Source of the DNA: Candidatus Shapirobacteria bacterium GW2011_GWF2_37_20
GTDB taxonomy: Bacteria > Patescibacteriota > Microgenomatia > UBA12405
NCBI GenBank assembly: GCA_000989305.1
Contig: LBTB01000013.1
Location: forward strand, 1 to 44,309
Direction: 5' to 3'
DNA: 44,309 nt
Part shown: piece by piece, positions 1 to 1,810 of the stretch
Layout: every line of letters starts with the position of its first letter
How positions within the stretch are numbered: the first letter of the stretch is position 1
Notes under the pieces: model-generated
Seen by the model: only the letters and a program-made list of their open reading frames with translations
Told to the model about the DNA's origin: nothing
The model's database searches: none
Translations under genes and position numbers: made by a program

Positions 1-167
1 CTTGGGTCAGCAATGAAGTCTTCAACTGATATCGCATTCAAGATAATTTCCGGAAATGGTAAATTTTCCTGGCTAATTTTTTCCAAAAGCATTTGAAAGA
101 ATCTGGCCCCGGCAAATGCCCCCATTCCGTCGATGATTCCAATTTTTTTTAATTCAGTTTGTTTCAT
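1..167 (-). CDS. Aspartate/glutamate racemase family protein, N-terminal part (runs off the left edge)
   Basis: Manual translation from ATG at 167 gives MKQTELKKIGIIDGMGAFAGARFFQMLLEKISQENLPFPEIILNAISVEDFIADP. This resembles the racemase N-terminal motif KxIGIIGGMG. Confidence 0.7.
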   Translation of the reverse strand, partial: MKQTELKKIGIIDGMGAFAGARFFQMLLEKISQENLPFPEIILNAISVEDFIADP

Positions 168-200
168 AAAAATTAATTAAATAATAAATAGGGGATTTTG

Positions 201-272
201 CAGGAACGAAGAGAGTTGAACTCTTATTACTTGTTCTGGAGACGAGCGTTTTACCAATTAAACTACGTTCCT
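201..272 (-). tRNA. tRNA-Trp (anticodon CCA), CCA end not encoded
   Basis: Cloverleaf on the reverse complement: acceptor AGGAACG/CGTTCCT, discriminator G; D-arm GTTT-AATTGGTA-AAAC; anticodon arm CTCGT-CTCCAGA-ACAAG (one C.A mismatch); T-arm AAGAG-TTCAACT-CTCTT. It is followed by CAA. Confidence 0.92.
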
Positions 273-305
273 AAAACAAAAATCTCCCGAAAAACCGGGA
301 GATTT
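273..305 (-). terminator. Intrinsic terminator (putative attenuator) directly upstream of tRNA-Trp
   Basis: Minus strand reads AAATCTCCCGG-TTTT-TCGGGAGATTT then TTGTTTT, ending 1 nt before the tRNA 5' end. Confidence 0.8.
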
Positions 306-326
306 AATATTTTTTGAAAAATAGTT

Positions 327-398
327 TTATGCCATTAAAACGTCTCCCGATTGGGCTAGTGCGTTTCGCCAATAGAAAGAACATTTAATTAATGACAT
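327..398 (-). CDS. Putative attenuator leader peptide MSLIKCSFYWRNALAQSGDVLMA (23 aa, Phe-Tyr-Trp cluster)
   Basis: Open frame from ATG 398 to TAA 327, with TTC-TAT-TGG at 377-369. It starts 6 nt after a -10 box and contains the antiterminator arm (352-343). Confidence 0.65.
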   Translation of the reverse strand: MSLIKCSFYWRNALAQSGDVLMA

Positions 399-404
399 TG
401 ATAT

Positions 405-432
405 ATCTTAACACTAAGCTATTGTGTGTCAA
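405..432 (-). promoter_or_regulatory. sigma70-type promoter for the leader/tRNA-Trp/racemase unit
   Basis: TTGACA (432-427), 16-nt spacer ending in TGT, then TAAGAT (410-405). Predicted +1 is at or near the leader ATG. Confidence 0.7.
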
Positions 433-477
433 GTTAGGCAATATTCTGTCAAAAATCTAAATACGTTATAATCAATT

Positions 478-660
478 ATGTTTGAAAAAAATGCTAATAA
501 ATACGATCCGGTAACAGCTACAATTCCCGGTGTTGATCAGCAACAACGGAGTGATGAGCTCAAGGAATTATCTCTTTCCGGTGATCCACAACCCAAAAAA
601 GAAACACCAAATGAGAAAAAAATAATTTTCCAAAAGCTTGGGATAAAGATAGTTAAGTAG
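478..660 (+). CDS. Hypothetical small protein (60 aa)
   Basis: ORF track. TATAAT (467-472) lies 5 nt before the ATG, as for other genes here. Confidence 0.5.
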   Translation: MFEKNANKYDPVTATIPGVDQQQRSDELKELSLSGDPQPKKETPNEKKIIFQKLGIKIVK

Positions 661-662
661 TA

Positions 663-735
663 TGCTATAATCGACCTTAGTCTTATTAGCTTAAAGCGAA
701 GTCGGTTAACAAAGGCGCTTTACCTAATATTTTTT
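663..735 (+). promoter_or_regulatory. Extended -10 promoter and structured 5' leader of rplY
   Basis: TGcTATAAT at 663-671. Stems TATTAG(684-689)/CTAATA(724-729) and TAAAGCG(692-698)/CGCTTTA(716-722). Confidence 0.5.
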
Positions 736-1425
736 ATGAAAAAAGAAAACCCCAAAATTTCTGCCGCGCTTAGAACCGTCACTGGACGTAAAGTAAAAAA
801 CCTCCGTTTGGCCGGTTTAACTCCCGCTACCATCTACGGTCATAAATTTGAACCAATTTCCATCGAACTATCAACCCCGGAACTTAATAAAATTTTTGAC
901 CAAGCCGGAGAGTCATTATTGGTTGAGATTGTTATTGGTGAAAATAATTATCCAATTATTTTCAAAAACCCTCAATTTCATCCAGTTTCCAGTGATCTAA
1001 TCCATATCGATTGCTACAAGGTTAACCTTAAAGAAAAAATTTCCACCATGGTTCCAATTGAGCTCATTGGTGAAGCTCCTGCTGTTAAAAATGGAAACAC
1101 TCTTATGTTTATCCAAAATGAAATCGAAGTCGAAGCTCTTCCTTCCGATCTTCCTGAAAAAATCGAGGTTGATGTTTCCTTGCTTGCCGAGGTTGATAAT
1201 AAAATTACTGTGGCCGAACTTAATGTTGACAGAAATATAATTGAAATTAAAACTGATCCAGAGCAAGTTGTGGTAATTATCGAAGCGCAGCGAGTCGAAG
1301 AAGAGCCGGTTGTTGTCGAAGAAGAAATTAGTCCAGAAGATGTTCCCGCCACTGCTCAAAAGACTGAGGAAGAAAAAGCCGCTAAGGAAGCTGCTGAGGG
1401 TGAAGAAGAGAAGACTGATAAGTAA
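736..1425 (+). CDS. rplY: 50S ribosomal protein L25 / general stress protein Ctc (long form)
   Basis: R.VTGRKVKNLR..G.TPATIYG, Q.HPV...LIHID.Y, EVEALP.DLPEKIEVDVS.L and an acidic tail. Confidence 0.95.
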   Translation: MKKENPKISAALRTVTGRKVKNLRLAGLTPATIYGHKFEPISIELSTPELNKIFDQAGESLLVEIVIGENNYPIIFKNPQFHPVSSDLIHIDCYKVNLKEKISTMVPIELIGEAPAVKNGNTLMFIQNEIEVEALPSDLPEKIEVDVSLLAEVDNKITVAELNVDRNIIEIKTDPEQVVVIIEAQRVEEEPVVVEEEISPEDVPATAQKTEEEKAAKEAAEGEEEKTDK

Positions 1426-1810
1426 AATAAATTTTACTTATATCTTCTCGTATCGGATCCAACATATAGGCATTTTTTATCGCTTCAAAAGCATCTTCTC
1501 TTTTGCCAAGTCTGTAAAATAAAACTGCTGTTTCCATCCAATCGTCAGCATTTTTCATCTTTTTTGTCTCTAGTGTCAACAGTCTTTTTTCCAGTTCCTC
1601 ACTCTTATTTTTTTTATTATAATTTTCTATATCTGTTATTTCCAGTTTTTTTTCAATTCTTTTAGCCCTTTCCCACTCACCCTTATTGACCAGCAGGTAC
1701 CACTTCTGTAGATTTCTATAATATATTTCTCCCTTTGATATTGGCCATATCTTTCCCAGGTTAATCGCAATTATCCAAATCAAAAGACTTATCAATACAC
1801 TCTCTTTCAT
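1382..1810 (-). CDS. Hypothetical membrane-anchored protein with a C-terminal TPR-like repeat
   Basis: N-terminal hydrophobic segment; WMETAVLFYRLGKREDAFEAIKNAYMLDP fits a TPR pattern; TGcTAAAAT upstream. Overlaps the rplY 3' end by 44 nt. Confidence 0.65.
   Translation of the reverse strand: MKESVLISLLIWIIAINLGKIWPISKGEIYYRNLQKWYLLVNKGEWERAKRIEKKLEITDIENYNKKNKSEELEKRLLTLETKKMKNADDWMETAVLFYRLGKREDAFEAIKNAYMLDPIREDISKIYFTYQSSLLHPQQLP

Follow-up and report, generated by a model that had tools for sequence, protein, structure and literature searches.

A probable tryptophan-specific leader-peptide attenuator ahead of a second tRNA-Trp gene in a Candidatus Shapirobacteria genome

The trpL attenuator of Escherichia coli (Rfam family Trp_leader, RF00513) has a short leader open reading frame (ORF) with Trp codon(s) at position 10, alternative 1:2, 2:3, and 3:4 hairpins, and a terminator before the regulated genes, trpEDCBA. 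Its leader ORF is led by a Shine-Dalgarno (SD) site, and its control codon lies about 15 to 16 nucleotides (nt) from region 2. In E. coli pheM-pheST, a classical leader-peptide attenuator, Phe responsive and SD led, precedes an aminoacyl-tRNA synthetase operon that has no tRNA gene as an output. This system is mentioned as a gammaproteobacterial analogue by Seliverstov et al. (PMC1262725), who predicted a leader ahead of trpS in Streptomyces. The closest described case to the one reported here is TrpL2 of Streptomyces lividans, a leaderless leader of 13 amino acids (aa) with a single Trp codon ahead of trpS; this trpS is described as monocistronic and without a U-rich tract (PMC8079986). Leaderless leader peptides are also reported for synthetase genes of Deinococcus deserti (PMC4007540). 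Within the candidate phyla radiation (CPR), Mukai et al. (2017) reported a Microgenomates operon, tRNATrp(A73)-ORF1-TrpRS-A, whose products lack Trp and for which control by Trp availability was suspected, and the available text of that paper describes no leader peptide or attenuator (PMC5370408). Here, we analyzed contig LBTB01000013.1 (44,309 nt, hereafter the window) of Candidatus Shapirobacteria bacterium GW2011_GWF2_37_20 (G000), a 0.81-Mb genome in 17 contigs from groundwater; NCBI places Candidatus Shapirobacteria in the Microgenomates group of Patescibacteria. Near the left end of the window, on the minus strand, a leader precedes a tRNA-Trp gene, and comparison with its relatives makes it very probable that this leader is a Trp-specific, ribosome-mediated transcription attenuator of the trpL type.

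An earlier note, made from the letters of this DNA, had read the leader as an aromatic-amino-acid attenuator of trpL/pheL layout controlling tRNA-Trp, an arrangement for which it knew of no described case. The attenuator itself is upheld by the present analysis, and its signal is narrowed to Trp. In the open-access papers searched (main texts), no report was found of a tRNA gene as the output of an amino acid attenuator, nor any report joining CPR or Patescibacteria with leader peptides, attenuation, riboswitches, or T-boxes. Leaderless Trp leaders ahead of trpS were already known in Streptomyces (PMC8079986, PMC1262725). The mechanism itself is therefore not new; as far as the searches reach, the new elements are the CPR lineage, a tRNA gene as a direct output, and a variable slot for Trp-salvage genes.

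Like E. coli trpL, the leader combines an ORF carrying a control codon, a terminator, a 2:3 helix that excludes the terminator, a 1:2 helix over the control codon, comparable spacing, and downstream genes for the same amino acid. It differs from the E. coli leader in its apparently leaderless start, in usually having one Trp codon, in its longer ORF with a stop codon beyond region 2, and in its outputs, which are tRNA-Trp, trpS, and putative salvage genes. No match to RF00513 was found at E ≤ 10 in window positions 1 to 1500, and the best relative, the leader of G093, reached 24.3 bits against a gathering cutoff of 41. The element works like the Trp_leader family and is not a member of it. Only the tRNA passes in the Rfam scan of window 1 to 1500 (E ≤ 10); a Phe_leader match at 30.3 bits (cutoff, 55) was rejected, as it aligns to the terminator alone. 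The Streptomyces TrpL2 leader belongs to another phylum, is unrelated in sequence, and has no tRNA or salvage gene behind it. The operon of Mukai et al. is also a CPR operon that starts with tRNA-Trp and continues with TrpRS genes, a layout that is found behind the present leader in G093. It differs from the window, where the tRNA is of bacterial type (G73, A1-U72) and the operon includes a racemase-family gene. In G093 (locus L130, 83 to 5085), the leader is followed by a two-hairpin element, a tRNA with a CCA anticodon, G1-C72, A73, and C33, a 320-aa ORF, an archaeal-type TrpRS of 388 aa, a 299-aa ORF, and a 487-aa fusion of a YbaK-like domain to a bacterial TrpRS.

All parts of the leader lie on the minus strand of the window. 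A promoter-like site consists of a -35 hexamer, TTGACA (432-427), a 16-nt spacer, and an extended -10 box, TGT TAAGAT (413-405, with the TG at 413-412 and TAAGAT at 410-405); the promoter described in the earlier note has 10 of 12 matches plus the TG extension in a consensus scan. A 6-nt gap separates the -10 box from the ATG at 398, so a leaderless mRNA is proposed. This ATG opens an ORF of 23 codons plus a stop codon (398-327; stop codon, 329-327) with the translation MSLIKCSFYWRNALAQSGDVLMA. Codons 8 to 10 are TTC-TAT-TGG, and the Trp codon TGG (codon 10, 371-369), in frame and kept in relatives, is the putative control codon. Minimum free energy (MFE) folding and pair counts place region 1, the 5' arm of the inner 1:2 hairpin, at 385-368, an arm that contains the Trp codon. 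Region 2 (352-329) was delimited by folding, complementarity, and pair counts and begins 16 nt beyond the TGG, a distance that is adequate in view of the size of the ribosome footprint. It can pair either with region 1 and the stretch at the start codon (398-389 with 338-329) or, through 352-334, with region 3 (308-293). In the second pairing, the antiterminator, AATCGGGAGA (352-343) and TTTAAT (339-334) are complementary to ATTAAA-TCTCCCGGTT (308-293) over 10 + 6 bp, in agreement with the helix of about 16 bp that had been proposed at this distance from the Trp codon. Region 3 is also the 5' arm of an intrinsic terminator (305-273), with a GC-cored, 11-bp 3:4 stem at 305-280 and a T tract that runs to 273. 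A gap of 0 to 1 nt separates the T tract from tRNA-Trp(CCA), bounded at 272-201 by Rfam (62.8 bits) and at 272-200 by ARAGORN, and an Asp/Glu-racemase-family ORF starts at 167, 33 nt past the tRNA, both as first described.

The conservation of these elements was assessed in 27 leaders, 26 of which were found with a covariance model (25 at E ≤ 2e-5, including the window's own, and that of G091) and one by eye. Loss of the ORF, of the Trp codon, or of the antiterminator complementarity in relatives had been named as evidence against the attenuator, and none of the three is lost in any of the 27 leaders read. In all 26 model-found leaders, the ATG, the open frame, a stop codon at the same place, and the in-frame TGG are kept. 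The ORF has 23 codons in 25 of them and 22 in G030, where the TGG is codon 9, and in every case the stop codon follows the TGG at a distance of 13 codons. The most distant leaders, those of G093 and G091, have offsetting 2-nt indels that preserve the frame. The leader found by eye, a diverged one upstream of trpS in G012, has the translation MKLNVSQNLWQYTWPNAGDVNLS. Seven of the 26 leaders have TGG at the preceding codon too (TGG-TGG). The adjacent Phe-Tyr-Trp codons on which the earlier aromatic reading was built are present in the window, and Phe or Tyr at codons 8 and 9 is restricted to its closest relatives, which points to Trp as the signal rather than to the aromatic amino acids as a class. 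Upstream, a TANNNT hexamer, mostly with a TGN extension, ends 6 to 10 nt 5' of the ATG in 26 of 26 leaders, and a TTGACA-like hexamer (5 or 6 of 6 matches) precedes 15 of them, spaced from the -10 hexamer by 16 nt in 11 leaders and by 19 nt in the 4 others, for which the hexamer was picked by script. With the -10 box so close to the ATG, there is no room for an SD site, and the message should therefore be leaderless.

Some features of the leader would also suit direct sensing of uncharged tRNA-Trp, free Trp, or a protein by the RNA, as in T-box, riboswitch, or TRAP systems, and the ORF would then be incidental to the hairpin sequence. Region 2 encodes the conserved part of the peptide, AQSGDVL, whose conservation could thus be due to RNA pairing alone; codon periodicity is absent from the ORF; and a UGGC stretch at nt 65 to 68 of the leader would be complementary to a tRNA 3' end reading GCCA. 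However, this stretch is not conserved and reads CGGC, UGUC, or UGGA in other leaders. The Rfam T-box model (RF00230) has no match at E ≤ 10 in window 1 to 1500, and no (G/U)AG repeat array is visible. Direct sensing also leaves unexplained why the ATG, stop codon, and frame persist in 26 of 26 leaders even across offsetting indels, why the -10 box always lies within 6 to 10 nt of the ATG, and why the TGG never departs from the frame or from its set distance to region 2 and is doubled in seven leaders. Such a mechanism is regarded as very unlikely here. The Firmicutes Trp T-box ahead of trpS resembles the present leader in that it gives more TrpRS at low charged tRNA-Trp through a choice between terminator and antiterminator, but it binds uncharged tRNA directly and needs no translation, whereas here the UGG lies inside a conserved ORF.

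The predicted folding of the leader is consistent with attenuation. The leader RNA (398-273, 126 nt) has an MFE of -38.5 kcal/mol, compared with -20.2 ± 3.3 kcal/mol for 200 shuffled sequences, none of which was as stable (z = -5.55). Its MFE fold consists of a long 5' hairpin (nt 1 to 31 with nt 43 to 70) plus the terminator, and both the start codon and the Trp codon lie within the 5' arm of the first hairpin. Regions 1:2, 2:3, and 3:4, three mutually exclusive hairpins, have the layout of a textbook attenuator, with compensatory changes in all three helices. In a model-guided alignment of 25 leaders, which are mutually related and not independent, 93.5% of the cells of the 10-bp 2:3 core are paired, and 4 of its 10 pairs are changed on both sides; only 25 to 56% of the cells are paired once the partner columns are slid by 1 to 3 positions. 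The 2:3 core was not part of the covariance-model structure used for the alignment. In G029 and G112, for example, a C-to-U change in region 2, a G-to-A change in region 3, and a C-to-U change in region 4 occur together. The distal 6-bp part of the 2:3 helix is less regular, being 33 to 80% paired in the same alignment, and in G093 it is swapped for a different complementary hexamer pair. When nt 1 to 43 were masked, to mimic a ribosome with UGG in its A site, and region 4 was absent, the 2:3 helix was the predicted fold in nine of nine leaders, at -15.6 to -19.5 kcal/mol. A broader masked-fold test gave this helix in 26 of 27 leaders. The sole failure was G131, for which the script recognized just 2 nt of the terminator arm and whose region 2/3 core is as in the others.

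If the element were just a constitutive terminator with some leakage, holding expression low without any Trp sensing, this would agree with the terminator being the most stable fold in most leaders and with most leaders having one control codon only. Such a reading leaves unexplained the invariant in-frame TGG, the doubling of this codon, the covariation of the antiterminator, and the absence of Trp from the operon products described below, and it is extremely unlikely to be the whole function of these sequences.

The gene order behind the terminator varies among the 26 loci and stays Trp related. The tRNA-Trp gene lies directly behind the terminator in 10 of the 26 loci (nine complete copies and a truncated copy at a contig end in G097). 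In nine loci, the tRNA starts -1 to 3 nt from the end of the T tract, which leaves no room for a separate tRNA promoter, and no promoter-like site was found by the scan between 305 and 272, where the earlier note had considered one. The next gene is trpB in five genomes (TIGR00263, 580 bits), an Asp/Glu-racemase-family gene in eight (PF01177, TIGR00035), or neither. Within the DNA fetched, trpS (TIGR00233, 292 to 302 bits) lies downstream in 20 of the 26 loci and is the most widespread regulated gene. The proposal that tRNA-Trp is the first output therefore holds for the window and nine other loci and needs amending in that trpS is more widespread and the tRNA is a second, diverged copy. The loci of G009 and G097 stop at contig breaks, and G093 has two TrpRS genes further downstream.

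In the window, only the first 55 codons of the racemase-family gene are present (167-3), its full-length orthologue matching PF01177 and TIGR00035; the ORF reaches the contig end at base 3, and the gene is cut at base 1 of the window's contig, C13. The end of contig C8 carries the last 36 codons of trpS and then a histidine-phosphatase-family gene. The operon appears to continue there, beyond the left edge of the window, and it probably spans an assembly gap of about 1.4 kb between C13 and C8. No trpB was found in G000.

A further element accompanies trpS. The box ATGTTAAAAT, which looks like an extended -10 element, ends 13 to 20 nt before the trpS ATG (counted by eye); it is exact in 19 of 20 loci (e.g., about positions 1545 to 1560 of L041), differs by one base in G017, and overlaps the 3' end of the trpB or racemase-family gene where these are present. 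It is the sole element upstream of trpS in G001, a genome without the leader. The AATGTTAAAATTT box may thus be a promoter element, in which case trpS would have a basal promoter and the attenuator would add induction by Trp starvation on top. This box also bears on a rival reading in which the leader is a separate gene for a small RNA or a small protein, ending at a terminator of its own, while the genes behind it depend on other promoters of theirs or on leaky, unregulated transcription. With its promoter, structured RNA, and strong terminator, the leader does make up a complete transcription unit of about 125 nt, and attenuator RNAs are reported to act in trans in Sinorhizobium (PMC6614838). 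But the leader always faces Trp-related genes despite the varying gene order, the tRNA starts too close to the T tract to have a promoter of its own, and an independent gene leaves the conserved, covarying 2:3 helix, a competitor of the terminator, unexplained. We consider an independent gene very unlikely; a trans-acting role in addition to attenuation could exist.

Two further kinds of content were seen behind the leader. In G011 (L053, 1831 to 2809) and G121 (L056, 1913 to 3128), tRNA-Trp is followed by an ORF without a Pfam or NCBIfam match and then by an AstE/AspA-like gene (PF24827), which together occupy the place of trpB or the racemase-family gene and then trpS; further Trp-salvage functions are possible for these genes. 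In four genomes, a conserved element of about 75 nt lies between the leader terminator and the next gene (L059, 1630 to 1700; L060, 1410 to 1500, minus strand; L130, 205 to 280; and G126). It consists of a long imperfect hairpin and then a short GC hairpin, with fold z-scores of -2.8 to -4.5, has no Rfam match at the gathering score, and could be a second regulatory stage. The G097 contig (L063) breaks off shortly beyond the leader, 12 nt into the tRNA; the sequence at this contig end is presumably a Nextera-type adapter and would then be an assembly artifact.

The proteins encoded by these operons are almost devoid of Trp. Among the proteins of loci L039 to L043, L045, and L130 and of the leader loci of relatives, 21 of 22 operon-encoded proteins contain no Trp at all, including TrpB (405 aa), TrpS (333 to 342 aa), the racemase-family protein, and the fused TrpRS (487 aa). 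As background, Trp makes up 1.23% of residues in G000, and 10 of its 168 ORFs of 300 to 420 aa are Trp free. A Trp-free composition is expected of proteins made while Trp is missing, and Mukai et al. observed it in related TrpRS genes (PMC5370408).

The tRNA behind the terminator is an extra, diverged paralogue and not the only tRNA-Trp of the cell. In G000, tRNA-Trp(CCA) is encoded twice and nearly every other tRNA once. The canonical tRNA-Trp gene is on contig C4 with an encoded CCA end, and its orthologues adjoin tRNA-Ala in five relatives. The two copies share only about 60% identity (alignment judged by eye), and the operon copy (272-201) has A1-U72 and G73 and no encoded CCA end. The canonical copy was found in three of five genomes with the operon tRNA and in three of five without it, the misses being in assemblies rated 91 to 100% complete. 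As the attenuated tRNA is an extra copy, its place after a terminator is not open to the objection that an essential tRNA gene would be ruled out there. The operon tRNA has the fold, the CCA anticodon, and the G73 of a bacterial-type tRNA-Trp, G73 being the bacterial usage according to PMC5370408. In an alignment of nine orthologues, 93.7% of the cloverleaf cells are paired, the T stem is 100% paired, and five pairs have compensatory changes, which indicates that the operon tRNA is under selection. Pair 29:41 in the anticodon stem is non-Watson-Crick in eight of the nine orthologues, and position 37 is G in the subclade of the window (G000, G008, G005, and G009) and A in the others. Because of the 29:41 mismatch, the lack of an encoded CCA end, and the G37 in the window's subclade, the diverged tRNA may differ functionally from the housekeeping tRNA-Trp.

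A trpL-type attenuator with these parts would act as follows. RNA polymerase would start on the ATG at 398 or a few bases from it and produce a leaderless mRNA, the 23-codon ORF of which would be translated by a ribosome. With charged tRNA-Trp in short supply, this ribosome would stall with UGG (371-369) in its A site, covering region 1 and leaving region 2 (352-334) free to pair with region 3 (308-293) before region 4 is transcribed. The terminator would then not form, and transcription would read through into the second-copy tRNA-Trp, which would be processed from this RNA, the Trp-supply gene (racemase family here, trpB in relatives), and trpS. With ample Trp-tRNA, the ribosome would reach the stop codon at 329-327 and cover region 2, so that the 3:4 stem forms and transcription ends at 273. 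Without a ribosome, the 1:2 hairpin would form, the 3:4 stem would follow, and transcription would again end at 273.

Several observations weigh against this reading. A single Trp codon is present in 19 of the 26 leaders, which is a weak sensor by E. coli standards. The entropies at codon positions 1, 2, and 3 are 0.70, 0.65, and 0.71, with no periodicity of substitutions in the ORF, and peptide conservation therefore gives translation no independent support, although no such bias would be expected where nothing but the control codon and the RNA pairing counts. Spacing is the sole basis for the proposed transcription start and leaderless initiation. The pair counts for the 1:2 and 3:4 helices speak for these helices (89.8% paired and 17 of 34 pairs with two-sided changes, none of 500 shuffles being as high; 1:2 helices 1 to 5, 81 to 96% paired with compensatory changes; terminator helix 6, 92.8% paired and 8 of 10 pairs with two-sided changes) but come from an alignment fitted to that same structure and from related, nonindependent sequences. 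With region 1 masked and region 4 present, the terminator is still the energy minimum in seven of nine leaders; the choice would thus have to be kinetic and cotranscriptional, as it is in known attenuators. Because the outer 1:2 stem encloses the start codon, the ribosome must load before nt 61 to 70 are made. Finally, part of the expression of trpS may bypass the attenuator through the promoter-like box before this gene.

A more specific extension of the attenuator model is put forward only tentatively, as possible rather than probable. Charged tRNA-Trp would control a dedicated starvation copy of its own tRNA together with the synthetase in a closed homeostatic loop, the variable slot would hold unrecognized CPR enzymes of Trp salvage, and the diverged tRNA would be functionally distinct. 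The slot holds trpB, the Asp/Glu-racemase-family gene, or the ORF without a family match plus the AstE/AspA-like deacylase gene. For example, a pyridoxal phosphate-independent racemase would feed D-Trp into the L-Trp pool, or a deacylase would release Trp.

The leader has a narrow distribution. A DNA search of 60 related genomes found the stretch in eight, and in six of these the homology starts at or near the ATG (query positions 81 to 83). Applied to 132 genomes of the order, the covariance model R1, built from nine leaders, matches over its full length in 25 (E ≤ 2e-5), the window's own included, and in G091 at E = 3e-4. All of these genomes and G012 belong to one family, f1. The leader was not found with R1 in 28 genomes of six sister families. 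In a class-wide sample, R1 matched three of seven genomes of family f1, and under strict filters the leader was not found in the 143 genomes sampled from 50 other families of the class. Weaker R1 matches in G122, G129, G114, and G103 (E = 4e-5 to 4e-4) were read and rejected, all four being ordinary gene-end terminators, and the R1 tally at E ≤ 0.01 (62 of 132 genomes) greatly overstates membership. The DNA upstream of trpS was read by eye in five genomes that lacked an R1 match; besides the diverged leader of G012, none was seen (G001, G010, G015, and G018). A pattern scan of genome contigs gave 47 stretches, 21 of which were matched by R1; the remaining 26, from records titled Prevotella, Prevotellaceae, Bacteroidales, and Saprospiraceae, had no R1 match and were set aside. 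Of the 21 matching records, 8 are titled Candidatus Shapirobacteria and 1 Patescibacteria group. The other 12 carry other labels (11 uncultured Gammaproteobacteria and 1 Candidatus Methanoperedens), which are probably misassigned because the leader and gene context match those of the Shapirobacteria-titled records. In a relaxed and crude scan of G000 for other leader-peptide attenuators, 151 terminator-like sites yielded 12 candidates, and only the Trp leader was convincing.

On the plus strand, a 60-aa ORF (window 478-660) lies between the leader promoter and the gene of an L25-family protein (736-1425). Similar DNA is present at the same place in G001 (by eye) and absent there in most relatives, and the ORF may be a real small gene. 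Upstream of the L25-family gene, window 661-735 (plus strand) contains a promoter-like site, TGCTATAAT, followed by a 5' untranslated region. Part of this region, which reads GACTTCGC...ACTAAGG on the minus strand, is conserved in relatives, and a ribosomal-protein leader structure may be present here.

As far as the literature searches reach, this would be the first leader-peptide attenuator described for a CPR bacterium. Its presence would mean that transcription is coupled to translation in these very small cells and that their pool of charged tRNA-Trp is sensed. If it is confirmed, tRNA supply joins enzyme supply among the outputs regulated in this way. The element is small (about 125 nt) and self-contained, and it labels a Trp regulon in genomes that lack a Trp pathway, giving the racemase-family gene and other genes testable functions. 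The Trp-free products of the operon show how deeply Trp scarcity has left its imprint on these organisms.

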